Source: Candidatus Methanomethylicia archaeon
GTDB lineage: Archaea > Thermoproteota > Methanomethylicia > Nezhaarchaeales > B40-G2
DNA length: 45,024 nt
Direction of reading: 5' to 3'
Assembly (NCBI GenBank): GCA_029259155.1
Contig: JAPDJI010000007.1
Coordinates: 1 to 45,024 of the forward strand
Position 1 is the stretch's first letter. Each line of letters opens with the position of its first letter. The notes below the pieces were generated by a model. That model did no database searches and was not told where the DNA came from. It saw nothing but the letters and a program-made list of their open reading frames with translations. The translations under genes and the position numbers were made by a program. Below are positions 1 through 39,052 of the stretch, piece after piece.

Positions 1-1113
1 AGGAGGATGGATAGGATAATAGAGGTCAACGAGAAGGCTAGGTACGTGGTCATAGAGGCGGGGGTTACTGAAGGCAAGCTTAAAGCCTACCTTGAAAGAC
101 ACTATCCTCACCTTAAACACTCCATCCCCGATGCACCTCCCTCAGCCACCGTGGTTGGCAACGCCCTCATACATGGGCAAGGTAGGCTGTCGCAGCAGTA
201 CGGCTTCACCTCAGACATGATCAACGGCTTGGAGGTCGTCCTGCCAACAGGTGAGGTCTGTAGGCTGGGTTCATGCGCTGCCTCACCTTACTGGTTCTCA
301 AGAGCTCCTCTACCTGACCTCATAGGGCTCTTCGTAGGGTGGCTGGGCACCACAGGCATAGTAACAAAGCTTTCCTTGAAGCTCTATCCGCGTAAGAAGC
401 TGAGGGACGTGGAGATCTTCGTCACCGAGGACCCTGAACTAGTCCCTGAAGTGGTTTTCAGGGTAACCCACACCGAGATGGTAGAGGATGTAGATATCTG
501 GGCTCAGCCCTACCCCCTAATCTTCAAAGACCTCCAACACACCTCCATTTACCTAACGGGCGATAATGAGGAGGAACTGGAGTTCAAGAGGAAGACGGTG
601 TGGAACGCGCTGCGCCACATCATCGATAGTAGGGAGGGGGGCTTCATGTTCGCCAACCCTGACATGAAGGAAGGGTTCCTCAAATCCCCTCAGCCAAGCG
701 TAGCTAGGATAGCGGACGTGAAGAGGGGTGGAGGGTTCGGGTATGTGGGAGCCATCATACCTGTCGAGAAGTTTCCCGAAGCCTATAGGCGTGGTGTAGA
801 GCTTTCGTTGAAGCATGATATAGGCACCTACTCCTTCATGGCTAGGGTGGTTGGCCGCGGCCACGCCTTAATGTTCGCCTGGTCTTACCCCTTCAACCGG
901 GCCGACGCGAAAAGCGTAGAGCGGGCACGTAGAGCTCTTGACGAAACCGATGAGCTAGCGCTGGAGCTAGGAGGAATACCTTGGAAGGCGGGGGTTTACG
1001 GACAGAGGCTTATCATGGAGAGGATGGACCCTAACACCTTAAACCTGCTGAAACGGGTTAAGGCGTTGTTGGACCCCAACGGGGTCATGAACCCTGGCAA
1101 CTGGGAGGCTTAA
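1..1113 (+). CDS. FAD-binding oxidoreductase, GlcD/D-lactate dehydrogenase (VAO/PCMH) family; 5'-truncated by window edge
   Basis: Frame is open from base 1 (RRMDRIIEVN...VIEAGV); ATVVGN, GLEVVLPTGEV, GTTGIVTK and terminal LDPNGVMNPG are typical of the family. Confidence 0.9.
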   Translation, partial: RRMDRIIEVNEKARYVVIEAGVTEGKLKAYLERHYPHLKHSIPDAPPSATVVGNALIHGQGRLSQQYGFTSDMINGLEVVLPTGEVCRLGSCAASPYWFSRAPLPDLIGLFVGWLGTTGIVTKLSLKLYPRKKLRDVEIFVTEDPELVPEVVFRVTHTEMVEDVDIWAQPYPLIFKDLQHTSIYLTGDNEEELEFKRKTVWNALRHIIDSREGGFMFANPDMKEGFLKSPQPSVARIADVKRGGGFGYVGAIIPVEKFPEAYRRGVELSLKHDIGTYSFMARVVGRGHALMFAWSYPFNRADAKSVERARRALDETDELALELGGIPWKAGVYGQRLIMERMDPNTLNLLKRVKALLDPNGVMNPGNWEA

Positions 1114-1116
1114 GCC

Positions 1117-2274
1117 ATGGAGGCTTCCTATGAGCTACATAGATGCTTCAGGTGCGGCTACTGCAAGTTTCCTGGAAGCTACGTAGACCTTAACTGCCCA
1201 GCTTATCAACGGTTCCGCTTCGAGTCCTACTCTACGGGCGGGAGGCTATGGTTGATAAGAGCTTGGCTCAACGGAGAGATTGCCTGGAGCCCACACTTAG
1301 CTGAAGTAGTCTATGCATGTACTACCTGCAGGAACTGTATGGAGCAATGTCCTTTCAAGTTCAAGGACCTACTCCTAGACATGGTCTTGGCTGGGCGTAG
1401 GGCAATGGTGGAGAAGGGGCTGGTCCCCCCCAAAGTAAAGGAGTTCCTTGAAAACCTCCTGAAACAGGGAAACCCATGGGGGATGTCTAGGGAGAAGAGG
1501 GCTAGCTGGGCCGTTGACCTGCCTAGGTACCGCGATGGCCACGAGTACCTACTCTATGTTGGCTGCTTAGCCTCATACGATGAGCGGGCCCAGAAGACGG
1601 CTAGAAGCCTAGCTAGGCTACTGAGCGAAGCCCAGGTTCCCTACGGCATACTAGGCAACGAGGAGGAGTGCGACGGCAACGAAGCCTACATGCTCGGGGA
1701 GGAGGGGCTCTTCGAATTGCTCGCTGAGAGGAACCTTGAGAAGTTTAAGGAGCTAGGTGTGAAAAAAGTGGTTGCTCTTTCGCCTCACGCCTACCACGTC
1801 ATGGTAAACCTGTACCCTAAGCTTGAGAAAGGGACGCTGGAGGTCTTACATTACACTCAGCTCCTCCAAAGGCTCCTGGAGGAGGGGAGGCTGAAGCCTT
1901 CAAGGTTGGAGGTTAAGGTAACCTACCACGACCCTTGCTACCTCGGTAGGCATAACCGGATATTCGACCCGCCCCGGCAAGTCCTAGAGAGCATCCCTGG
2001 CCTTAAACTATTAGAGATGGAGCGGAGCAGGGAAAACGCGCTTTGTTGCGGTGGAGGAGCAGGCAACTTTTACATAGACCTCCTAGCTGGACGAAATAGC
2101 CCTGCTAGAGTGAGGGTTAGGGAGGCCTACGATACAGGAGCTAGAGTCTTAGCGGTCGCTTGTCCAGCATGTCTGATCATGTTGGAGGACGCGGTTAAGG
2201 AGGAAGGCCTGGACGGCGAGCTTATGGTCAAGGACGTCGCCGAGGTGCTGATGGAGGCCTGCCTAAGAGGTTAA
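1117..2274 (+). CDS. Fe-S oxidoreductase, GlcF/HdrD-like (2x[4Fe-4S] plus CCG domains)
   Basis: CFRCGYC..CP and CTTCRNCMEQCP; YHDPC..CCGGG..ACPAC; starts 3 nt after the FAD oxidoreductase. Confidence 0.9.
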   Translation: MEASYELHRCFRCGYCKFPGSYVDLNCPAYQRFRFESYSTGGRLWLIRAWLNGEIAWSPHLAEVVYACTTCRNCMEQCPFKFKDLLLDMVLAGRRAMVEKGLVPPKVKEFLENLLKQGNPWGMSREKRASWAVDLPRYRDGHEYLLYVGCLASYDERAQKTARSLARLLSEAQVPYGILGNEEECDGNEAYMLGEEGLFELLAERNLEKFKELGVKKVVALSPHAYHVMVNLYPKLEKGTLEVLHYTQLLQRLLEEGRLKPSRLEVKVTYHDPCYLGRHNRIFDPPRQVLESIPGLKLLEMERSRENALCCGGGAGNFYIDLLAGRNSPARVRVREAYDTGARVLAVACPACLIMLEDAVKEEGLDGELMVKDVAEVLMEACLRG

Positions 2275-2327: not shown

Positions 2328-3101
2328 GTGGCTCTACTTCCCTTAGCCCTTCTCGTCCTCGCAGCGCTCAGTCCATTTACGCTCAGCTTAACGGTGGAGG
2401 TTGACGTAGGCACCGTGGAGCTTAACGTGGGTGAGGAGCTAGCGGTTGTCTATGAGGGAGAGGCCCCTATCTACGCCGTGGTGGCTAACTTCACCGAGGG
2501 CTTAATGGTGTCTGAGGCCGAGGTGATGGATGGAGGACATAGAGGCCTAATCCAAGTAGAGGTGTATAACAGCTCAGTAAGGCTGGGTGAATGTTTAATC
2601 GCCTTAACCTCCACCAAGCCTTTCACCGTAAAGGTTTCGACAGAGGAGGCTCTGGCGACATACAACTGTGACGGCAACGTAACGGTGATGCTACATGTCA
2701 AGATAAGGGCGTTAGAGGTGGAGGAGGGCGAAGCACCGAGGGGGATATACGTCTCTTGGGAAAACCTCTGGCCTATGCTCATCTATGGAGCATTAACCCC
2801 TCCCTTCCTAGCAGCAGCGCTATTGGACGTTAAGGACTTCAAGGCCAGGAGGGGTAGGAGAGCTAGGGTGGAGAGCTTAGCCATCGTCTTAAGGTACATG
2901 ACCTACGCCTCTATCACCTGTTTAATAGCGGTTTTAGCGGTGACAGGGGGGTTAGCTCTCTATAGCCTGATAGCCCCCATGCCTCTTAGAGTTGAGGCTG
3001 GAAGCCTACTCCTCAGCTCCACCTTGACTGGAGCCTTAGCTCTCCTCTATGGGCTAGCCAGGTGGAAGGGGTGGTACGAGGCTGTCGATGAATATGATTG
3101 A
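2328..3101 (+). CDS. Hypothetical membrane protein: signal peptide, beta-rich extracytoplasmic domain, about 3 C-terminal TM helices
   Basis: Hydrophobic N-terminus, GAGGT SD before GTG, three hydrophobic segments with a basic loop KARRGRRAR; overlaps next gene by 14 nt. Confidence 0.8.
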   Translation: MALLPLALLVLAALSPFTLSLTVEVDVGTVELNVGEELAVVYEGEAPIYAVVANFTEGLMVSEAEVMDGGHRGLIQVEVYNSSVRLGECLIALTSTKPFTVKVSTEEALATYNCDGNVTVMLHVKIRALEVEEGEAPRGIYVSWENLWPMLIYGALTPPFLAAALLDVKDFKARRGRRARVESLAIVLRYMTYASITCLIAVLAVTGGLALYSLIAPMPLRVEAGSLLLSSTLTGALALLYGLARWKGWYEAVDEYD

Positions 3102-5772
3102 GAACCCTAAGCCTTGGTGGCTTAGGAGGCCGACGCTCAGGAAGATCCTAGGCCTACCGCTACTCCTAGCCAACAAGGAGTATAGGAGGTGGCGTAACGC
3201 TCAGCTAAGCCCAGGGAAGATTAGGAAGAGGCTGAAGGAGCTAGACAAGAAGCTTCCTAGGAAGCGCGAAGACCTTGTTGGGCGCGATAGGGAGTATCAG
3301 CTTATCATGAGCTCCGTGGGCTACCACGTGATTAGAGATAAAGCAGCCGTAGAGCTCTTCCAAGGAGCTCCTCCGCCGAAGTTCATCATCCTGAAAGGGG
3401 CTACGGGCACGGGCAAAACCATGCTTGCAGAGGTTTGCCTACGCGACGCCGTACTCTACGGGCTTGAGAAAGGGGTTAACGTGCAGCCTATGATGGTGAG
3501 CTGCTCAGAGATCTTCCACCCTCTCTATGGGCAGAGCGTCAGGAACATAGCAGCCGTGTTCAAGAAAGCAAGGTTTACGCCTACCGTACTATTCTTCGAC
3601 GAGTTCCACGCAGTAGGCATGAGGGTGGAGAAAGCCTACTACGCCGTGGATAGGGAGGACGTGAGGGTCCAGGACGCCTTCATCGACCACTTAAACCGCG
3701 TCCTGACAGGCCAAGACCGCGTAATAGTGTTGGCAGCTACGAGCAAACTGGAGGGTATGAGGGAGGATATTAGGCGTAGAGCCTACGTGATCGACCTAGA
3801 CCAGAACATCACCCGCGACCTACTCCTAGCCGTGCTTAGAGCTGAGCTGGAGAAGTATGGCTGGACCTACCTTGACGAGGAGGAGGTCATGAAGATCCTA
3901 GAGCGATCCGTCAGTGCCTTTAGGCAGACCCAGCTCACCCCCTTCGATATCATAGATGCCTGCAACAGGGTCCGAGCAAGGAAGGTGGAGCCTCTACGCC
4001 AAGCCTTGTTTAAACGAGTTAGTGGAGGAGGCAGGGTGGATGTCAGCTACAAGGTTAGCCTAGACGACTTCAAGTTAGTGGCCAGGGAGCTTCGAGGCTA
4101 CGTGGAGCAGGAGAAGAGCAGCGAGGTCATGAGCAGCGTGCTTAGGATAAAGCCTGCGGTGAGCTACTCCGATATAGGTGGCCTCTTCGGCATCAAGGAG
4201 AAGCTCTTCAAGATCATCTCGCTTAGCTTAAACCCTGATCTAGCCAGTAAGCTGAACTGGGTTCCTCCTAAAGGCTTCCTGCTATGGGGCGAGCCTGGCT
4301 GCGGTAAGACCTACCTGTCCAAGGCGATAGCTAAGGAAAACGACGCTGCCTTCTTCTACGTCCCCGCCGCTCAGCTCCTCATAAACGCGAAGTGGGTAGG
4401 AGACCCTGAGAAGAACGTGAAGGACCTCTTCGAGCTTGCTCGCAGGTCGGCGCCAAGCATCATCTTCTTCGACGAGTTCGACGTCATAGCTAGCAGGCGT
4501 CGCGGAGACCCTGTAAGCGACCGTATGACGGCTCAGATCTTAACTGAGCTCGATGGCCTACAGCCCCTAGAGAACGTGATTGTGATAGCCGCTACCAATA
4601 GGCTGGACACCATAGACGAAGCGGTGGTTAACCGGTTTGAGCCCTACGTAATTGAGGTTCCACTGCCTAGAAACGATGCTGAGCGCTTAGATGTGATAAG
4701 GGTTCACTTAAGGCAGTACGTAGCCCACCTAGACGAGGAAGTCGATGAGGGGAGGGTGCTCAGCGTACTGAAGAAGTTCAGGCTGGTGTCGCCTAGGGTG
4801 GTAGCCGAGGTAATAAGAGAAGCCAATAGGCTTAGGTCGCAGGAGGTGATGGCTGCCTCTGAGCTTAGGAGAGCCATGGAGGCCAACGACCCGGTCCTCG
4901 AGGAAAGAATTAGAAACCTCTACCGCGAAGACCTTGAAAGGCTTGAGAGGCAGGTAGGCAGGTTGACCTTAGAGAGGCTCAGGGAGGTTACGCCAAGCCT
5001 ACACCGGATAAAGATCTTCCACTTTGAGGCAGCCGCTGAGCAGTTAAAGCTCGACGTGGACAAGGAGATCATGGACGCTCAGGAAAGCATGCTGTGCGAG
5101 GAGCCAACCATAGGCACCGTGATGGGCTTAGCCACCGACGCCCAAGGGAGGAGAGGGGTCATATTAATAGTGGAGTGCTCCGTCAACCCGAGGGGGACGG
5201 GGAAGGTAACGGTGACCGGCGCGGCTAGGACCGTTCTTTTAGGGCATACCACGCCGGTGGAGGATGTTAGCGTCCAAGAGAGCGCCATCAACGTCACTGA
5301 GTACGTAAGGAGCTATGTCCACGAGAGGCTAGGCATAGATATCTCCAGCTTCGACTTCAAGTTCCAGGTTATAAGCCCTCTCGAAGGCGTAGCTGGGTTA
5401 GGTGTTAGCGGGCCTAGCTTAGGCCTAGCCTTTAGCATAGCCGCCATCTCAGAGCTAAGCAGCCTGCCTGTAGAGCCGGGGGTTGCCATAACGGGGAAAG
5501 GTGACATCAAAGGCAACGTAGGCCCTGTAGGAGGCTTAGGGTGGAGAGGAGCTGGCAAAATAGTGGCTGCCATCCAGACGAGGAAGGTCAAGGTGAAGAA
5601 GTTCATCCTTCCGAGGTGGAACTATGAACGTGGCCAAGACGAGGTAAAGGTACTTGAGGAGGTAGGCATCCACGTGATACCCGTCGAAAGGCAGGTCGAT
5701 GCTTGGCTCCACGCCCTAAACATCGGCGAGGAGGAGCTTCTAGAGAGGCTTAGAGCTAAGCTTTCCCATTAG
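3088..5772 (+). CDS. Tandem-AAA ATPase fused to a C-terminal Lon-type (S16) protease domain
   Basis: D1 GATGTGKT/LFFDEF; D2 PPKGFLLWGEPGCGKT/KWVG/IIFFDEFD/AATNR; from about 5101 GTVMGLA..GTGKVTVTG..QESA..SGPSLG..AITG..PVGG..KIVAA..ILPRWN. Confidence 0.9.
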   Translation: MNMIENPKPWWLRRPTLRKILGLPLLLANKEYRRWRNAQLSPGKIRKRLKELDKKLPRKREDLVGRDREYQLIMSSVGYHVIRDKAAVELFQGAPPPKFIILKGATGTGKTMLAEVCLRDAVLYGLEKGVNVQPMMVSCSEIFHPLYGQSVRNIAAVFKKARFTPTVLFFDEFHAVGMRVEKAYYAVDREDVRVQDAFIDHLNRVLTGQDRVIVLAATSKLEGMREDIRRRAYVIDLDQNITRDLLLAVLRAELEKYGWTYLDEEEVMKILERSVSAFRQTQLTPFDIIDACNRVRARKVEPLRQALFKRVSGGGRVDVSYKVSLDDFKLVARELRGYVEQEKSSEVMSSVLRIKPAVSYSDIGGLFGIKEKLFKIISLSLNPDLASKLNWVPPKGFLLWGEPGCGKTYLSKAIAKENDAAFFYVPAAQLLINAKWVGDPEKNVKDLFELARRSAPSIIFFDEFDVIASRRRGDPVSDRMTAQILTELDGLQPLENVIVIAATNRLDTIDEAVVNRFEPYVIEVPLPRNDAERLDVIRVHLRQYVAHLDEEVDEGRVLSVLKKFRLVSPRVVAEVIREANRLRSQEVMAASELRRAMEANDPVLEERIRNLYREDLERLERQVGRLTLERLREVTPSLHRIKIFHFEAAAEQLKLDVDKEIMDAQESMLCEEPTIGTVMGLATDAQGRRGVILIVECSVNPRGTGKVTVTGAARTVLLGHTTPVEDVSVQESAINVTEYVRSYVHERLGIDISSFDFKFQVISPLEGVAGLGVSGPSLGLAFSIAAISELSSLPVEPGVAITGKGDIKGNVGPVGGLGWRGAGKIVAAIQTRKVKVKKFILPRWNYERGQDEVKVLEEVGIHVIPVERQVDAWLHALNIGEEELLERLRAKLSH

Positions 5773-5809: not shown

Positions 5810-7750
5810 TCAACGACGCCTAAGAGAGCAGATAAAGCCGGGGTAGGGCTGGTAAGCTATGCCTAATTGTAGGAGACGCCCTAGAGCAGCTTCAAAAGCA
5901 TCCCTCCCTATGCCCTCAGCCAGCGCTTTTTCGAGAAGCTTCTCTACCCTTGTAGGCTCGTTAGGCAGGTGGTGTTCAAGCCACTTCATGGCCTTACCCA
6001 TCCCCTTAGCGTACTGAAGGTAAGGTGAAAACCACTCAGCCTTCATGGAAGGCTTTGGAGGTTCAGGGGGAGGCTGAGGAGAAGATAGGTAGCCGGATAG
6101 CGTAGTGGTCACGGTGGGCTTAGCAGGTTTCTCGGGCTTCTCAGGCCTCTTAGCTTTAGGCAAAGCTCGGTCTAGGCGGCGGAGGAGAGCTTTCATCCTC
6201 CTAACCCGGTGGACGCTCGCCCAGTAGAAGGCTTCATCCATGCTACGCTCAGTGATGAGCACCGTAGCTTTACCAGCCACGCGCCTACCTGTCCTTCCCC
6301 GCCGCTGGATGAACCTTATCTCGCTGGGTACAGGTTCATAGAAGATTACGTGATCCACCTCAGGTATGTCTAAGCCCTCCTCTGCTATGCTGGTAGCTAC
6401 CAGCACGTTGTAGACCCCTGACCTTAAAGCCTCTAAAACCTCCTGCTGAGCACGTTGGCTCATTCCTTCATCCCTACTTCTAGAAGCTTGGCCCACAAAC
6501 CTAGCCGCTCTAACCCCTTCGAGCTGTTTTAGGGAGTCCAAGATCACCTTCGCCGTGTCACGGTACTGGGTAAAGATAAGCATCCTAGATTCAGGTTTAC
6601 TGTCCAGCTGCTCCTTCACCACCTCTAGTAGGGCGTGGATTTTCGGATGCTTCATCCCCTCAGCCTGTTTCAGGTAGAACTTAGCCTCAGCAAAGAGGGG
6701 GTCGGCCAGGATTGATCTATGAGCCTTGCTGCCTGCCTCAGCGTCTTTAACCAAGGTGTCCTCTATGAAGGCCTTCAACGTATCTATGCCCTGGGTCTCT
6801 AGGAGCTCGAGCATGTGAGCTATGGAGATCGCAGCTGTGGTCTGAGCCTTTAAGTGGTATAGGTAGCCTCCTTCACCTTGGTTAAGCCTCTTCTGGAGCT
6901 CCTCATTGAGCTTGATCAAATCCCCCTTCGTCACTTTGCTAGGCTTCTTCTCAGGGAAGGCTCCCATGCTTTGTAGGCTTTTCACGCGTTCCTCCAACAT
7001 GGCTTTGAGGCAAGCTCTAACCTTCTCATACTCGGAGGGAAGCTTCACCTTCCTCCAAGCCATCTTAATGGGGTGGATGTATGGTGCAACGTCCTCGTCG
7101 TCGTCCGTCCTGACCTCGATAGCCTCGATGAAAAGGTTACGACACACCTGTTTAATCTCGTTTTCATCGCCTCCTGGGGAGGCGGTTAAGGCGAGGATTA
7201 AGGGGTCGCTGGCCTCGCTTACGTAGCGCTTAGCTATCTCCACGTACGCGTAGTTTCCGCGTGCTCTATGGGCCTCATCGACTATGAGTAGCCCCACGTC
7301 GGATAGGCTTATCTTACCGTCGGCAAGGTCGTTGCGGATCACCTGAGGAGTAGCGAAGATGAGCTTAGCTCTCTTAAAGAGCTCTACTCGCTTAGGTTGA
7401 GGGTAAAGCCCGGTCAACACCGTCATCTCATCCTCGCTGAGGTCTAGGTGGTCCTTGAACCGCTCATGGTGTTGAAGGACAAGCGGCCGAGTAGGAGCCA
7501 GAAAAACTACTTTACCTCCATCCCCGTAGAGGCGGTGAGCTGCCAGTAAAGCTGCTATGACGGTTTTACCCAGCGCCGTGGGAAGGACCACGAGGGTATT
7601 TGCTTTCTTAGCTCTCTCCAAGATCTTACGTTGATAAAGCCTATCCTCAACCCTCCCCGTCTTGATGAGAGGATGTTCAACAAACTTCCGTTCAGGCTTA
7701 AGGGGAGGGTTAATGCTCGACACCGCCTTCCTCGTGAGGATGTCGGCCAA
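5810..7750 (-). CDS. hef: Hef/FANCM-family SF2 helicase without ERCC4 nuclease domain
   Basis: RLYQ, LPTALGKT, DEAHRA.GNYAY, LTASPG, HPK, ATSIAEEGLDIP, QRRGRTGR. Confidence 0.88.
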   Translation of the reverse strand: MADILTRKAVSSINPPLKPERKFVEHPLIKTGRVEDRLYQRKILERAKKANTLVVLPTALGKTVIAALLAAHRLYGDGGKVVFLAPTRPLVLQHHERFKDHLDLSEDEMTVLTGLYPQPKRVELFKRAKLIFATPQVIRNDLADGKISLSDVGLLIVDEAHRARGNYAYVEIAKRYVSEASDPLILALTASPGGDENEIKQVCRNLFIEAIEVRTDDDEDVAPYIHPIKMAWRKVKLPSEYEKVRACLKAMLEERVKSLQSMGAFPEKKPSKVTKGDLIKLNEELQKRLNQGEGGYLYHLKAQTTAAISIAHMLELLETQGIDTLKAFIEDTLVKDAEAGSKAHRSILADPLFAEAKFYLKQAEGMKHPKIHALLEVVKEQLDSKPESRMLIFTQYRDTAKVILDSLKQLEGVRAARFVGQASRSRDEGMSQRAQQEVLEALRSGVYNVLVATSIAEEGLDIPEVDHVIFYEPVPSEIRFIQRRGRTGRRVAGKATVLITERSMDEAFYWASVHRVRRMKALLRRLDRALPKAKRPEKPEKPAKPTVTTTLSGYLSSPQPPPEPPKPSMKAEWFSPYLQYAKGMGKAMKWLEHHLPNEPTRVEKLLEKALAEGIGRDAFEAALGRLLQLGIAYQPYPGFICSLRRR

Positions 7751-13513: not shown

Positions 13514-14506
13514 GTGAAGGCCTTGAAGTTTAAGCCTATAGCCTCGGCGCTAGGGGTTACGTTAAGCCACCCCTATGAAGGATACGTAAGCTTCACGTCC
13601 AGCCCATACACCCCTCACGTGGCTTGGTCAGCCGTAGATCTCTCTACCTCCACGAAGTTCGGAGATGAAGCCCTGTCACCTGTTGAAGGCAAGGTGGAGA
13701 GGATCGTGAAGGCGAGTAGCGGAGCTGGGCCCTATGAGCGGCTAGACTACATGATATCCATTAAGCCTAGGAGGTCCGAGAAGGTTAGGGTAAAGGTAAT
13801 GCACGTGAAGCCCGCCGTTAAGGCTGGAGATCACGTGGTGGAGGAGGACTTACTAGGCAGGTACATCAGGACGAACTACTTCTCCTACCACCATGTACCT
13901 CACCTTCACGTAGAGGTCTGCAGGGATACCAGCCTTAGACCTACGAGGGCAGCTCCCTTAACCCCTCTACTGCCATTGAGCGAGAAGACGTCCTTGAAGA
14001 AGCTTAAGGTAGTGGTCGATAAGGTAGAGGAGAGCTTCGCTCTATGTAGCCTAGAAAACGGGGGGCTGGGCATTACGTGTACCATAGGGGCTTCGCGTCG
14101 TAGAGCCCTGCTCAATGGACAGCTAGGGGTTAGAGCTGAGTACCTCGGCCTCCTAGGTTTAAGGGACGTAGAGATAAACGATCCCGTAAAGGTTGCGGGC
14201 AGCGAGGTAGCTTACGTTAAGTCTCAGCTAGGAGATCGAGCCATAGCTATTACCTCTAGGTCTCTATCCTTCAAGTCTTGGCTTAGGAAGCTTCAGAGAG
14301 CTTACCTTTCCAGGAACGAGGCACCTAAGCCTAGGGTAAAGGTGACCTCGACTGAAGCGCAGGTGAGAGGAGTAGAGCTCTTATTGTCGAAGCGGTGGCA
14401 GGTTAAGCTCATACCGTATCAAGGTCGCAGCTGGGGCGAAGAGCTGAGGGGGAAGAGGCTGGAGCTAAGCTTGAGCTTAAGACGGAGCAGGACTAGGCTT
14501 TCCTGA
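13514..14506 (+). CDS. Hypothetical protein with N-terminal M23 peptidase-like domain
   Basis: [36 protein letters not shown]. Confidence 0.7.
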
Positions 14507-15202
14507 AGCTTCCTTTAATCTACCAGCCCTTCTCCTTGCTTCTAGCTCCCTGAAGACCTCGTCTAGATCTACGCCTAATACTGCTAAGAGGACAAGGGAG
14601 TGGAAGAGGAGGTCAGCGGCTTCCTTAACCACCTCCTCTTTGGCGTTGTCCTTCGCAGCTAAGACAAGCTCTAAAGCCTCCTCACCCACCTTCCTAGACA
14701 CAGCGTTGACACCGGCGGAGGCCAGAGAGCTTACATAGGAGGTCGGTTTAGGGCTTCGTAGTCTATCCTTGATCACCTCGAAGACCTCAGCCAAGATAGC
14801 TGGCCCTTTAGCTACTTCCTCCTTGACCTTAGCCTCCACCTTGTTATGGAAGCAGGTGTAGAAGCCTTCGTGGCAGCAAACTCCGACCTGGACAACCTTG
14901 AAGAGTAGAGCGTCGCGGTCACAGTCCAAGTAGACCTCCTTGACGTACTGGTAGTGGCCTGAAGTCTCACCTTTAAGCCATAGCTTGCCCCTCGATCTAC
15001 TCCAGTAATGCATGAGGCCGGTGGTTAACGTCTTGAGAAGAGCTTCCTTATCCATGAAAGCTTGCATAAGTACCTGTCCAGTAGCTAAATCCTGTACCAC
15101 CACGGGTACGAGGCCGTTGCCCTTAGCGAAGTTTACTTCATCAACTAGCTTGGAGGCCTCTTCAAGCCCAAGCCTGAAAAAACTGTTGGACACAGCGTCC
15201 AC
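14477..15202 (-). CDS. hisIE: Bifunctional phosphoribosyl-AMP cyclohydrolase / phosphoribosyl-ATP pyrophosphatase
   Basis: [27 protein letters not shown]; [20 protein letters not shown]. Confidence 0.95.
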
Positions 15203-34614: not shown

Positions 34615-35943
34615 GTGAAAACATTGAGGGTAGTTGAAGCCTCAAAACTGACCTCGGAGGAGTATGCTCGTATCGTCAGCCGCGGGGCCCTTGATCTATC
34701 CAAGGCCTTAAAAGAGGTTGAGAAAGTCGTCGTGGAGGTTAAGGAGAAGGGCGATGAAGCTCTAAAGAGGTTCTCCAAGGAGTTCGACGGCGTTGAGGTC
34801 GATCTAGAGAGGTGGAGCTTCAAAGTCGACGAGGAGGAGGTTAAGGAGGCTTACCGTGAAGTTGGCGAGGAGGCCTTAGAAGCCATCAGGAGAGCCGTGA
34901 AAAACGTCAAGAAATACCATGAGGCTAGGAGGCCCACGAGCTTCTCGGTAAAGGTGGAAGAAGGCGTAATAGCCGGATCATTGATCAAACCCCTCAGCCG
35001 AGTAGGTGTATATGTGCCTAGAGGTAGGTCAGGGTATCCTTCCACCGCCATTATGACGGTGGTGCCAGCTAAGGTGGCAGGCGTGAAGGAAGTGTTAGTC
35101 TGTACTCCCCCCTTGAGGAACGGTAAAGCCCCCACGTTAACCTTAGTAGCTGCCATAGAAGCTGGAGCTAGCCAGGTGTTTAAGGTGGGGGGCGCCCACG
35201 CTATAGCTGCCATGGCTTATGGCACCGAGACCATACCTAAGGTAGACAAGATAGTAGGTCCGGGAGGCCTATACGTCACTGCAGCTAAATTGCTTGTCAA
35301 TAAAGAAGTTGCCATAGACCTCCCGGCGGGCCCGAGCGAAGTATTGGTAATAGCTGACGATTCAGCCGACCCAGCCTATATAGCGTTGGACCTCCTAGCT
35401 CAAGCTGAACATGATCCTGCCTCCACCTCTATACTTGTCACCACCTCTAAGGAGTTAGCGATTAAGGTGGTGGAGGAGATCGACCGTAGAAGAGAGGCTT
35501 ACCCTAAAGGCAGCGCTGAAAGGGAACGGCTAGATAAGAGCTTGGAGGAGAGGGGATGGATCATTGTCGTTGAAAGCTTGGATGAAGCGGTTAAGATAGT
35601 GAACGACTTTGCCCCTGAACATGTGGAGTTCATAGTTAAAGATCCTTTAAGCCTGCTCGGCGCCGTCAGGAATGCTGGGTCAATGTTCATGGGCGAGTAC
35701 TCACCCACAGCCATCGGAGACTATGCTGCCGGCCCGAGCCATGTCTTACCTACCGGAGGGTACGCTAAAGTCTACTCAGGGTTGTCGACGAGAGACTTCG
35801 TTAAAGAAGTAGGGTTCATTAACTGTAACGAGGAGGGAATGAAAAGGATAGGATGGATAGCGGCTAAGCTAGCCGAGCTGGAAGGTTTTAAGTTACATGC
35901 CTTATCGGTGGAGGAGAGGCTGAGGAGGCTGAAGCCTAGTTGA
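34615..35943 (+). CDS. hisD: Histidinol dehydrogenase
   Basis: [50 protein letters not shown]. Confidence 0.97.
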
Positions 35944-36545
35944 AGGTCGCCGTGGTAGACTACGGCATGGGTAATCTTAGAGGGGTCAAGCTCGCCATAG
36001 AAAGAGCTGGGGGAAGAGCTGTCATAACCAATGACCCGGCGGAGGTAACGGAGGCAGACGCCATAGTCCTTCCAGGAGTAGGGGCGTTTAAAGACGCTAT
36101 GGAGAGGCTCAGAAGCATTGAAGAGGTAGTGAAAGACCAGATAAGAGCTGGAAAACCTTTGCTCGGCATATGCTTAGGACTACAGCTCCTCTTCACGGAG
36201 TCTATGGAGGGTGGTTTACATAGAGGCTTAGACCTGTTGAAGGGAAGAGTAGTGAAGCTTCCTGCAGGTGTTAAGGTTCCACACATGGGCTGGAACAAGG
36301 TGAACATCGCTAAGTGGACTAGGTTTGTCGAAGACCTTCCTCAAGGAGCCTACATGTACTTTGTCCACTCCTTTTACGCTGATCCCCTCAACAAGGACGT
36401 AGTGTTAGCTACGACGGAGTACGGGGTAAAGTTTCCCTCCATCGTCGAGGCCGATCCACTATACGCTACTCAGTTCCATCCGGAGAAGAGCGGGAAAACA
36501 GGGTTGAAGCTGCTTCGAAACTTCATCAGCATAGCTAAGAGGTGA
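35940..36545 (+). CDS. hisH: Imidazole glycerol phosphate synthase glutaminase subunit
   Basis: DYGMGN, LPGVGAF, GICLG.Q, PHMGWN, YFVHS, QFHPEKS. Confidence 0.97.
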   Translation: MKVAVVDYGMGNLRGVKLAIERAGGRAVITNDPAEVTEADAIVLPGVGAFKDAMERLRSIEEVVKDQIRAGKPLLGICLGLQLLFTESMEGGLHRGLDLLKGRVVKLPAGVKVPHMGWNKVNIAKWTRFVEDLPQGAYMYFVHSFYADPLNKDVVLATTEYGVKFPSIVEADPLYATQFHPEKSGKTGLKLLRNFISIAKR

Positions 36546-36551
36546 AAGCAC

Positions 36552-37304
36552 ACGCTGTTAATACCTTCAGTAGACCTGGTCAAGGGCAAAGTTGTGAGGT
36601 TGACTAAGGGAAAGTTGGAGGAAATGAAGGTATACTACGACGACCCTGTAGAGGCAGCCAGGGAATGGGAGGAGGAAGGTGCCGATGCATTACACGTAGT
36701 TGACATCGAAGCAGCTATGGGGATTGGGGAGAACCTTGAAGCCATAGAGAAGGTGCTCTCCTCGGTTAGCGTTGAGGTCCAAGTCGCTGGAGGTATACGT
36801 AGCGTAGAGAAGGCACGTAGATTAGTGGAGCTTGGAGCTACAAGGATAGTAGTGGGCACGAGGTTCATCGAGAAACCGGAGGAAGTAGCTAGGATCGCAA
36901 AGGAGCTTGGCTCCTCTAGAGTAATGGTAGCGCTGGACCACCGTTCAGGCACCGTCGCCGTGAGGGGCTGGGTAGAACAGACGGGGCTAGATGTCTATGG
37001 AATGGCTGTAGAAGCTGAGAAGGCGGGAGCTGGGTGGATACTTTTCACCTCTGTTGAAAGAGACGGTACGCTTAGCGGATTAGACCTGGCTTCGTTAAAC
37101 AGAATGGTCAAGTCGGTTAAGATACCGGTAGTGGCGGCTGGTGGAGTAGCGAGCATCGAAGATATAGTGAACGCAGCTAAATCAGGGGCAGCGGGTTTAG
37201 TGCTGGGCAAAGCGCTTTACGAGAAACGTGTCAAGCTTAGTGAAGCCTTGAGGAAGCTAGAGGAGCTTGGACTACGCAGGTCACATAGAAGGGGGAAGCC
37301 TTGA
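36552..37304 (+). CDS. hisA: ProFAR isomerase; start extended upstream of GTG 36594 to a presumed ACG (36552) or CTG (36555)
   Basis: In-frame LLIPSVDLVKGKVVRL upstream of 36594; LHVVD, GGIRS, RDGTL.G, AGGV. Confidence 0.9.
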   Translation, partial: TLLIPSVDLVKGKVVRLTKGKLEEMKVYYDDPVEAAREWEEEGADALHVVDIEAAMGIGENLEAIEKVLSSVSVEVQVAGGIRSVEKARRLVELGATRIVVGTRFIEKPEEVARIAKELGSSRVMVALDHRSGTVAVRGWVEQTGLDVYGMAVEAEKAGAGWILFTSVERDGTLSGLDLASLNRMVKSVKIPVVAAGGVASIEDIVNAAKSGAAGLVLGKALYEKRVKLSEALRKLEELGLRRSHRRGKP

Positions 37305-38194
37305 GTAGATTCCTTCAAGCATTGAAAGCTAGGCTAAAGTTGACCAAGCTAGGGTTAAGCCACGGAAACGACGCTGACGGTATAACGTGCGCAGCTCTCT
37401 TCTTACGTAAATATCCAGGAGCCACCGTGGTCTTAGCTGAGCCGTGGGAAATTAAGCCTACATGGACCTGCTGGTTGAACTGGTTTGCCTGGGACTTCGT
37501 AGCCGACCTTCCCTGTCCCTTTAGAGCAAAGCTTCACGTAGATCACCATAAGACAGGGAGACCCTGCGCTAAAGTAGAGTTCTATGACCCTGAAGCTCCT
37601 TCAGCCGCCTCGCTGGCTTTGAAAGCCTTGCAGCTGGAAAGCGACGAAGAGGCAGCCAGGTTGGTGGAGCTAGCTAATGAATGCGACACCGCTAAGATAA
37701 GGTCTCAGGAAGCTTGGGACCTAAACGATGCGGTAAAAGGTTCAAGGATAGAGGAAAGGGTAACTTTAGCTAAGCTGCTAGCCATGAAGGGTTTAGCAGC
37801 GCTCAGTGAACCTATGGTCAAGGGTTGGATTGAGGTTAACAAGGCCAGAAGGAGGAAGGTGCAGACGCTCGTTGAGAAGGTGCCTATCGAAGATTTCCTT
37901 TTCATTAAGTTAAGGGAGGTTGACGAAAAATTCCCCGTGAGGACCTTCATGCTGACGCTCGAGGAGAAAGGAGCTAAGCTAACATGCGTCATCACTCCCA
38001 GAAGGAGCAGGTTTAAGGTTCACTTAGGCTCAAGACGTGATAGCGGAATAGACTGCGCTGAGATAGCCTTTAAGCTAGGGGGTGGAGGCCATAGATACGC
38101 AGCGGGAGCTACCGTAGACAACCTCGATGAAGCACTGAGAAGAATAAAGGAAGCCTTAGGGTTGAAGGAGCTTAAGGTCATGGAGCTCGCTTGA
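37301..38194 (+). CDS. DHH/DHHA1-family phosphoesterase
   Basis: SH.NDADG, VADL, VDHH, GGGGH..AAG; TTGA overlap with the hisA stop. Confidence 0.88.
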   Translation: MSRFLQALKARLKLTKLGLSHGNDADGITCAALFLRKYPGATVVLAEPWEIKPTWTCWLNWFAWDFVADLPCPFRAKLHVDHHKTGRPCAKVEFYDPEAPSAASLALKALQLESDEEAARLVELANECDTAKIRSQEAWDLNDAVKGSRIEERVTLAKLLAMKGLAALSEPMVKGWIEVNKARRRKVQTLVEKVPIEDFLFIKLREVDEKFPVRTFMLTLEEKGAKLTCVITPRRSRFKVHLGSRRDSGIDCAEIAFKLGGGGHRYAAGATVDNLDEALRRIKEALGLKELKVMELA

Positions 38195-38239
38195 TGGACG
38201 AAAACCGATATTAAGCTGGCCAACTGCTTCATTAGCGCT

Positions 38240-39052
38240 ATGCTGGCGAAGCGTATCATCCCCTGCCTCGACATGAAGGACGGTAGAGTAGTCAAAGGAA
38301 TAAAGTTCCTAAATCTGAGGGATGCAGGCGACCCTCCTACCTTAGCTGCCTACTACGAGGAGCAGGGAGCCGACGAAATAGTATTTCTAGACGTTACGGC
38401 TAGCCATGAAAAACGCAAGATCCTTGTGGATGTCGTGACAAGGACGGCCGATCAGCTATCCATCCCGTTCACCGTGGGGGGCGGAATATCCAGCCTCGAA
38501 GACATAAAGATCGTGTTACACTCAGGAGCCGATAAAGTCTCTATTAACACCTCCGCTGTCCAGCAGCCCGAGCTGGTGAAGGAAGCCGCCCAGGTGTTCG
38601 GAAGCCAATGCATAGTTGTAGCCATAGACGCGAAAAGAGTTTACGTGGAGTATCCAAGTCAAGCTCAAGACAAACTTTTAGTCGAGGTAGAGGAAGGGCT
38701 TTGCTGGTGGGAGGTATATACCCACGGTGGTAGGAAGCCCACCGGCCTAGATGCCTTACAGTGGGCTAAAAAGGTAGAGGAGCTTGGGGCTGGAGAGATA
38801 CTCCTCACTAGCATGGACTGTGATGGCACACAGGACGGCTATGATCTTCCGCTTACAAAGACAGTATCTAGGTTAGTCAACATACCTGTGATAGCCAGCG
38901 GAGGAGCAGGTTCCCCACACCACATATATGAAGCTTTAACTGAAGGTGAAGCGGACGCAGCTCTAGCTGCCTCCATTTTCCACTACGGGAAGTACACAGT
39001 CAAGCAAGTTAAAGAGTACTTAGCAGAGCGTGGTGTGGAGGTTAGGATTTGA
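38240..39052 (+). CDS. hisF: Imidazole glycerol phosphate synthase cyclase subunit
   Basis: [52 protein letters not shown]. Confidence 0.97.

Follow-up and report, generated by a model that had tools for sequence, protein, structure and literature searches.

Cdc48/VAT-type unfoldases in archaea feed the 20S proteasome. Here we describe a pair of overlapping genes at positions 2328-5772 of a 45,024-nucleotide stretch of DNA from a Candidatus Methanomethylicia archaeon (contig JAPDJI010000007.1; hereafter the window), of which the first, gene A, encodes a small membrane protein and the second, gene B, a protease with two AAA domains and a Lon peptidase domain. The nearest published idea is that of the 'membrane-bound AAA' (MBA) proteins of Sulfolobus, reportedly described by Serek-Heuberger et al. 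in 2009 as a group of archaeal AAA proteins for which membrane binding is predicted and whose hosts lack FtsH, and said to have their helices in the same chain as a single AAA domain. No match to the Lon peptidase family Lon_C (PF05362) was found in the Sulfolobus acidocaldarius control genome, and therefore the MBA proteins there are not Lon fusions. In the literature, MBA forms a cluster of its own among the archaeal AAA proteins (PMC3493965), the archaeal ATP-dependent proteases are only the proteasome and LonB (review PMC4343526), and the Lon subfamilies A, B, C and BA all have one ATPase module (PMC9569914). LonB is presented there as a single Lon-type AAA+ module with an inserted membrane anchor and an Asp before the catalytic Ser, and in both LonA and LonB the Ser and Lys have exactly 42 residues between them (PMC9569914); the accessible sections of a 2008 survey of Lon_C architectures (PMC2605481) do not include AAA-AAA-Lon_C. 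A full-text literature search turned up neither a tandem-AAA Lon_C protease nor its anchor, and an earlier mention may exist in papers or supplements. The A-B machine seems to be of a kind undescribed in archaea.

A preliminary description of this locus had suggested a membrane-tethered proteolysis system in which A is a separate anchor, adaptor, sensor or dedicated substrate of B. The anchor is now supported by the fused and mini forms reported below, which argue against the dedicated substrate, and a role as sensor or adaptor is possible for the outer domain of A only. We assign a probability of roughly 0.8 to the reading that A would be a detached membrane anchor and B the engine and chamber, the two being subunits of one membrane-bound ATP-dependent protease.

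Conservation of the pair and its fused and mini forms

We searched a fixed set of 301 genomes from the phylum of the window with the C-terminal 334 amino acids of B and with a profile of A, and took 22 orthologous loci from one-genome-per-species contigs; the counts are over related genomes and are not independent. The B query matched 49 of the 301 genomes, 19 with close homologues and 30 with members of a second clade, which is at about 36% identity (the distant clade). The A profile matched 20 genomes. The preliminary description had proposed a gene-neighbourhood survey for a conserved pair and had considered that the protease homologues might usually lack the membrane gene; the opposite was found, as all 19 close-B genomes have A, with one copy each. 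In 18 of them A lies directly upstream on the same contig and strand and ends where B begins, and in the nineteenth (G284) the two genes are on separate short contigs. The only genome with A and without B (G242) has A 724 nucleotides from a contig end. Throughout the sample A was never duplicated and never located elsewhere. At 17 of the 22 public loci a homologue of A (240-298 amino acids; blastp E 4e-16 to 1e-58) overlaps B, and at 4 more the three-helix module of A is fused to the N-terminus of the protease.

Genes on either side vary among 10 A-B loci (the closest relative, L003, alone shares the DEAD/helicase neighbour of the window), and therefore conservation is limited to the pair. Of the 120 matches listed for B, the first 85 share its architecture at 57-84% identity. 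The assemblies that encode them are Nezha-, Methanomethylicia/Verstraete-, Bathy-, Hecatellales-, 'Sulfolobales'-, Odin-, Hod- and Prometh-archaeal, and the names given by their sources go no further than AAA family ATPase or hypothetical protein. In a separate Asgard sample, 8 of 201 genomes gave family-level matches (E <= 1e-25), the other 13 matches being frames of LonB length. The A family is small, with 33 representatives among 1.84 billion proteins, none of them named in any source. Recurrence of the same pair in different phyla puts the arrangement far beyond chance. An adjacency without functional meaning, in which A is an unrelated upstream membrane protein, is next to impossible; it is contradicted by the reciprocal co-occurrence, the conserved overlap, the fusion and the non-conserved flanks.

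At the Odin/Hod loci L018, L019, L022 and L023 the upstream gene is unrelated and the N-terminus of the protease is extended by about 115 residues. This extension, found in 9 of the 85 family proteins among the matches listed, has three helices, a W..DS.AL.LRYLFF loop and a Y(D/E)xxDE(E/Q) tail, which leads without a break into the PWW motif near the start of B. A hidden Markov model (HMM) built from 18 stand-alone A proteins only was run against 6055 sequences (six-frame open reading frames of the genome and fetched proteins); its only matches were to A and to the N-terminal ends of nine Asgard proteases (E 1.5e-22 to 1.2e-8). In all four complete Asgard genes the A profile matches once, within a protease frame of 1014-1019 amino acids. 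A search of a protein collection for longer proteins, with the alignment of the A family as query, came back empty, a false negative, as fused proteins exist in that collection. The HMM matches show, at the level of sequence, that the helix-and-tail module of A is homologous to the N-terminus of the single-chain orthologues.

A third arrangement, a mini form, was seen in the bathyarchaeial relatives L102 and L103, in which the upstream gene encodes only 124-134 amino acids, with three helices and the tail and without the outer domain. In a quick maximum-likelihood tree of 50 proteases, from which the anchor columns had been removed and which was rooted on the distant clade (an assumed rooting), the fused forms made up one clade (Shimodaira-Hasegawa-like approximate likelihood ratio test, SH-aLRT, 100), sister (95) to the mini-form group. 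On the simplest reading of this tree, loss of the outer domain came first and a single fusion followed. Because it is absent from both the mini and the fused forms, the outer domain appears from this comparison to be an accessory.

The anchor candidate and its junction with the protease gene

Gene A (2328-3101, plus strand) has a GTG start and encodes 257 amino acids. Hydropathy supports the layout given in the preliminary description, namely a hydrophobic, signal-like N-terminus, an external domain of about 120 residues with two Cys, three transmembrane helices (TM1 to TM3), a basic loop and a tail. The hydrophobic N-terminus (residues 1-20; 2328..2387), a predicted signal peptide or signal anchor, aligns with hydrophobic N-terminal segments in the homologues. 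It is followed by a predicted extracytoplasmic domain of 125 polar residues (21-145; 2388..2762) with the two cysteines C89 and C113 (the third Cys of A lies inside TM2) and two N-x-S/T sequons, of which N117 is present in 18 and N81 in 14 of the 19 full-length homologues. TM1 (146-168; 2763..2831), placed by hydropathy and alignment, starts with the near-invariant W148 and ends in an LD motif. The predicted cytoplasmic basic loop KDFKARRGRRARVESL follows (169-184; 2832..2879; the wider stretch 167-186 has a net charge of +4) and leads into TM2 (185-212; 2880..2963). TM3 (224-244; 2997..3059), like TM2 placed by hydropathy, is followed by the tail RWKGWYEAVDEYD (245-257; 3060..3098), which is likewise predicted to be cytoplasmic and whose DNA also holds a purine run and the start codon of B. 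In the alignment the loop is part of a longer conserved motif, LD.KD.K..RKRWS..D..AL.LRYLFY, and R189, Y190 and F192 are kept in at least 90% of the rows, Asgard fused forms included.

Conservation is very uneven along the protein. The outer domain is its least conserved region (mean pairwise identity 28%) and the tail its most conserved part (62%). The last nine residues have a net charge of -3 to -5 in 18 of 18 proteins, and the Y(D/E)xxDE(E/Q) motif of the tail is retained in the fused forms. We define the A-type family by three helices, the LD..K loop, the RY.F motif, the Y(D/E)xxDE tail and a position adjoining or fused to the protease, all of which A has. The predicted topology, with the outer domain outside and the loop and tail inside, follows from the positive-inside rule and from the conserved sequons; a cytoplasmic tail also agrees with the fused forms, because there it leads into the protease, which is necessarily cytoplasmic.

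Neither A nor the mini form, nor the partner proteins of the distant clade and of Heimdall, matched any Pfam, NCBIfam or PADLOC family, and a profile search of the PDB with A gave no match below E 0.6. The ESM Atlas model of P0128, a stored protein identical to A, has a predicted local distance difference test (pLDDT) score of 0.51, so its structural neighbours (TM-score 0.29-0.40) are meaningless and were discarded. Five weak stretches of another protein, P0152 (1890 amino acids), match the outer-domain part of the A profile (E 4e-9 overall). P0152 carries Pfam hints of Ig-like/ASH, ricin-lectin and fascin domains, and the A-matching stretch overlaps the Ig-like/ASH matches; hhalign gave a probability of only 4%. 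An Ig-like sandwich in the outer domain of A is thus no more than weakly hinted at by P0152.

The open reading frames 2328-3101 and 3088-5772 overlap by 14 nucleotides, as had been noted before, and B lies in the +1 frame relative to A. Four independent metagenome assemblies span the junction with no indels, and therefore the split is not an assembly artefact. Upstream of the B start are a purine run, AGGTGGAAGGGGTGG (3060-3074), and a Shine-Dalgarno-like GAGG (3078..3081) 6 nucleotides before the ATG, inside the coding sequence of A. The 3' end of the 16S rRNA from the same genome reads ...GGATCACCTCCT, so that GGAGGGG would be a good ribosome-binding site. The +1 frame of B is common to all 21 split loci; its ATG is found at a 14-nucleotide overlap, in the D-E codons of the tail (GATGA), at 17 loci and at an 11-nucleotide overlap at 3, and an additional ATG or TTG occurs at a 26-nucleotide overlap, 5 nucleotides past GGAGGGG, at 15. 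GGAGGGG corresponds to the W-R-G codons of the A tail. In the fused forms W-R-G is lost, as no internal start is needed there, and Y(D/E)xxDE is kept. Because the start and the ribosome-binding site of B lie within the last codons of A, the two proteins are probably translationally coupled and made in matched amounts. Scans for sigma-70 promoters and terminators gave results at the level of shuffled sequences, with models that are ill-suited to archaea.

The fused and split forms are collinear, with five residues from the DE motif to PWW in both, and therefore a single base gain or loss would interconvert them. The same five residues separate DE(E/Y) from PWW in the fused L018 and in a notional +1 read-through of the window, and this collinearity, together with the constant +1 frame, could be taken to mean that the split is only apparent and that ribosomes make a programmed +1 frameshift where A ends, yielding a single Asgard-like polypeptide. 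We consider this extremely unlikely: the ATG of B is conserved and has the purine run upstream of it, re-pairing in the +1 frame is impossible for the last sense codons of A (GAT, GAG, GAA, CAG), the loci differ in their stop codon (TGA, TAG, TAA), and RNA structure at the junction was not significant against shuffled sequences (z -0.56).

The exposed position predicted for the tail, its acidic and aromatic composition and its conservation would also fit a degron. In that case A would be a dedicated substrate of B, acting in trans-membrane signalling in the manner of an anti-sigma factor, with a tail on which the AAA rings pull; AAA unfoldases often begin at terminal tails. This is highly unlikely. 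In the Asgard orthologues the tail forms one covalent chain with the protease and is not a free end, it would be hard to explain why a protease and its only substrate should be made in a coupled and matched way at 21 of 21 loci, and no transcription factor or other output partner is conserved in the flanks of the 10 loci compared.

The protease and the proposed membrane-bound machine

Gene B (3088-5772, plus strand) has an ATG start and encodes an 894-residue tandem-AAA Lon-type protease. Its N-terminal segment (residues 1-60; 3088..3267), with the pattern PWW...LRK..hydrophobic PLL..YRRWRNAQL, is the point of anchor fusion in the Asgard forms. W10, W11 and W35 are invariant in 34 of 34 B-family sequences; residues 1-70 have a net charge of +13, and the 55 residues counted from WW have +7 to +14 in all 34. 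The sole hydrophobic window of B, residues 768-787, is the Lon active-site region and not a transmembrane helix by hydropathy, and residues 1-767 have no hydrophobic segment. The earlier statement that the protease lacks transmembrane helices and has a basic, Trp-rich N-terminus is thereby upheld.

The two AAA domains and the peptidase domain were also recovered as previously proposed: a Pfam scan gave two PF00004 stretches (181.8 bits) and Lon_C at residues 670-867 (53.3 bits; cut-off 21.1). From the motif alignment D1 (61-330; 3268..4077) is a classic AAA domain, with Walker A GATGTGKT (3397-3420), the pore loop PLYGQS (3520-3537), Walker B FFDEF (3592-3606) and an RRR motif (3772-3780); G104, G107, G109, K110, Y147, G148, D171, E172 and R229-R231 are invariant in the 34 sequences. 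D2 (331-560; 4078..4767) has Walker A GEPGCGKT, the pore loop KWVG, Walker B FFDEFD and the sensor N504. Both Walker motifs of both rings, Y147-G148 of D1, KWVG of D2, R229-R231 and N504 are likewise invariant in all 34. The best solved relative of the AAA part is the Thermoplasma VCP-like ATPase VAT (5g4g, E 1.4e-76), with p97 also close, and residues 89-543 are collinear with residues 205-639 of Cdc48 from the same genome (34% identity, E 5.5e-57). The best NCBIfam models for B were CDC48 (TIGR01243, 210.7 bits; cut-off 802.65) and PAN (207.3; 500), and B was far under the cut-offs of LonB (TIGR00764, 67.8; 516.6), lon (TIGR00763, 64.2; 608) and FtsH (TIGR01241, 144; 600). The Pfam scan found neither CDC48_N nor the M41 peptidase (PF01434). 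PADLOC matches to IetA and TRIP13 are generic AAA matches, and a defence-system reading of B was rejected.

A helical linker without a family match (561-664; 4768..5079; conserved residues S568, P569, R570, E574, R581, H645 and F646) joins D2 to the Lon (S16) peptidase domain (665-894; 5080..5769), which was assigned from PF05362 and from solved relatives. Solved Lon P domains match it at E 4e-13 to 1e-6, the best being that of Archaeoglobus fulgidus LonB (1z0b), with whose Ser-Lys dyad Ser777 (5416-5418, in a GPS motif) and Lys824 (5557-5559) align. G775, P776, S777 and K824 are invariant in all 34 family members, which span both clades. The centre is of the A type, G-P-S, with Pro and not Asp preceding the catalytic Ser, and 46 residues separate S777 from K824, with a 4-residue insert (GWRG region) before the Lys. 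By these motifs and matches B is a Cdc48-like D1-D2 tandem without the Cdc48 N domain, joined to a Lon peptidase; it looks fully active, with its catalytic motifs intact, because the catalytic and AAA motif positions are invariant in 34 of 34 sequences.

In its arrangement the A-B pair resembles FtsH, a membrane AAA protease of bacteria and organelles (MEROPS M41), which has an N-terminal membrane anchor with an outer domain followed, on the cytoplasmic side, by a classic-clade AAA domain and a peptidase ring, and the Asgard orthologues hold the same order in one chain. The AAA part of B matches the FtsH model weakly, by the TIGR01241 score given above, and there are clear differences: B has two AAA rings instead of one and a Lon Ser-Lys peptidase instead of an M41 zinc peptidase, there are three helices against two in FtsH, and the anchor of the window is a separate gene, an in-chain N-terminal anchor being found in the Asgard orthologues only. 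With archaeal LonB (MEROPS S16.005) the pair shares the character of a membrane-associated, ATP-dependent Lon-type protease and the nearest P domain; however, B has two PF00004-type AAA domains, no inserted helices and a Pro before the Ser. With regard to the Lon family as a whole (MEROPS S16), B has the Lon_C domain and the Ser-Lys dyad, whereas the single Lon-type AAA+ module is missing and the Ser-Lys spacing is 46 and not the 42 of LonA and LonB. With Cdc48, VAT and p97 it shares the tandem of classic-clade domains, collinear with the Cdc48 of its own genome, and the pore-loop aromatics in both rings; in contrast to them it lacks the N domain, falls below the family cut-off (the two true Cdc48 genes of the genome score 1215 and 1145 bits), has its peptidase fused in cis where Cdc48 docks to a separate 20S particle, and would be membrane-tethered. 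ClpAP and ClpCP, like B, thread substrates through two stacked ATPase rings into a serine peptidase chamber, and differ in that they belong to another AAA+ clade, are soluble and have ClpP as a separate protein. As judged from its sequence, the A-B system works like FtsH and LonB, yet fails defining features of each.

The machine that we propose would be built as follows. The three helices of A would lie in the membrane with the N-terminal domain outside and the basic loop and acidic tail in the cytoplasm, where loop and tail would contact the basic, Trp-rich N-terminus of B and hold the D1 face at the membrane, much as FtsH is held by its own N-terminal helices; a hexamer would bring 18 helices. 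The opposite charges of the tail (-3 to -5) and of the N-terminus of B (+7 to +14) favour such a contact. B would form two stacked Cdc48-type AAA rings, D1 and D2, and then a peptidase ring with the Ser777-Lys824 dyad. Membrane or membrane-near proteins would be gripped by the pore loops of D1 and D2, pulled out and unfolded, passing from D1 through D2 to the Lon chamber to be cut there; by analogy, this would be an extraction like that of FtsH or of endoplasmic-reticulum-associated degradation (ERAD). The outer domain, present in some lineages only, would be an accessory that may sense or scaffold outside.

The outer domain also admits another division of labour, in which A is a regulatory sensor or adaptor and B binds the membrane by its own N-terminus, the outer domain sensing the envelope and gating B or recruiting its substrates. 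Residues 10-30 of B (WWLRRPTLRKILGLPLLL) combine hydrophobic and basic character and show conservation in both clades, full-length A has a conserved sequon-bearing outer domain, and the partners in the distant clade, described below, share the layout of A and not its tail. The mini (L102, L103) and fused Asgard forms, however, keep only the helices, loop and tail, so the outer domain is dispensable and the membrane-embedded part is what is conserved and fused; furthermore, B has no segment of transmembrane-level hydropathy outside the Lon active site. We regard this alternative as unlikely.

Several observations weigh against A as the anchor of B; the distant clade contributes to both sides. 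At 10 of its 16 loci a co-directional partner of 229-260 amino acids lies just upstream of the protease. This protein has two helices behind a signal-like N-terminus and an outer domain; its order is an outer domain of about 150 residues, TM1, a conserved LD.YFKSK.E.VS loop and TM2 (L086-L101, L106-L110). At the remaining six loci, all of genus g25, the partner adjoins on the opposite strand, divergently, in 5 of 5 tested genomes. A membrane partner adjoining the protease thus holds in both clades. However, the A HMM gave no match to the distant-clade partner, and hhalign gave a probability of 29%, for the outer domain only. The partner also lacks TM3 and the acidic tail, and therefore the contact between tail and N-terminus cannot be universal; A and this partner may be very remotely related or may be analogues. 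In addition, the N-terminus of B, being hydrophobic and basic, might bind the membrane without A. The conservation of the A tail is due in part to dual coding with the start and ribosome-binding site of B, and to that extent its conservation as protein is inflated. The fusion also counts, by the tree, as one evolutionary event and not several, because the fused forms are one clade.

The distribution of LonB adds to these points. Among the 301 genomes, homologues of B (close or distant) occur in 49 and LonB-like matches (E <= 1e-30; 4 candidates scored per genome) in 31, and both occur together in G073 only, so that the A-B system tends to stand in for LonB. This avoidance is weakened because Heimdall G303 also has a canonical LonB (906 bits) and Hod G302 a LonB-like gene, and because most of the 301 genomes have neither a B homologue nor a LonB-like match with the queries used.

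We tentatively raise the wider possibility that the proteasome and LonB are joined by anchor and protease as a third class of ATP-dependent protease in archaea. This class would be FtsH-like, with a Cdc48-type double ring, a Lon chamber and a dedicated three-helix subunit, which Thermoproteota encode in trans and Odin/Hod Asgard archaea in cis; the enzyme would extract and degrade membrane proteins in an ERAD-like way without ubiquitin or a separate proteasome, and the outer domain would couple its activity to the state of the envelope. The B family unites the unfoldase type of the Cdc48-proteasome pathway, a Lon peptidase and the membrane layout of FtsH, and is highly conserved, at the identities given above, across Nezha-, Methanomethylicia-, Bathy-, Odin- and Hod-type lineages. 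Its natural split, mini and fused forms offer a ready-made test of how a membrane anchor functions with an AAA protease, and it could serve as a prokaryotic model of a membrane-tethered Cdc48-like extractor in a lineage related to eukaryotes.

Other proteases of the genome and neighbours of the pair

In the source genome (94% complete) B is the only ATP-dependent Lon-type enzyme found with the queries used, which also detected no canonical LonB; the two true Cdc48 genes are accompanied by three genes for 20S subunits. At E <= 1e-20 the CDC48 model found only the two Cdc48 genes and B, and no PAN-like single-ring proteasomal ATPase was found with that query. The only other Lon_C gene (L002:1309-2220, minus strand of another contig, C12, of genome G000) encodes an ATPase-less membrane protein of 303 amino acids with the motif VDGPSAG..., which has one N-terminal helix, a coiled-coil-like stretch and the Lon peptidase domain. 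Back to back with it lies a gene for 286 amino acids (L002:2404-3264) that is stomatin/SPFH-like by eye, and the two may represent a membrane-anchored, ATP-independent Lon-like peptidase paired with a stomatin.

The LonB-like frames of the survey fall into two groups. One, of 800-845 amino acids (G024, G080, G206, G272, G093, G302 and others), scores 140-165 bits against the LonB cut-off of 516.6, and the second, of 735-780 amino acids, scores 345-370 bits; no genome of the phylum sample passes the curated cut-off with the candidates scored.

Upstream of A in the window (1-2274) is a GlcD/GlcF-like pair, an FAD-linked oxidase (FAD_binding_4 / FAD-oxidase_C) and a CCG/4Fe-4S protein, which is not conserved beside A-B at other loci. 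Convergent with B on the minus strand (5810-7750) is a gene for a Hef/Hel308-like DEAD/Helicase_C protein of 646 residues, which has an RNA_helicase_helical bundle. The remainder of the window consists of histidine biosynthesis genes (hisD, hisH-like, hisA/hisF and hisIE, at 34615-39049 and 14480-15202) and other housekeeping genes, which are unrelated to the A-B pair.

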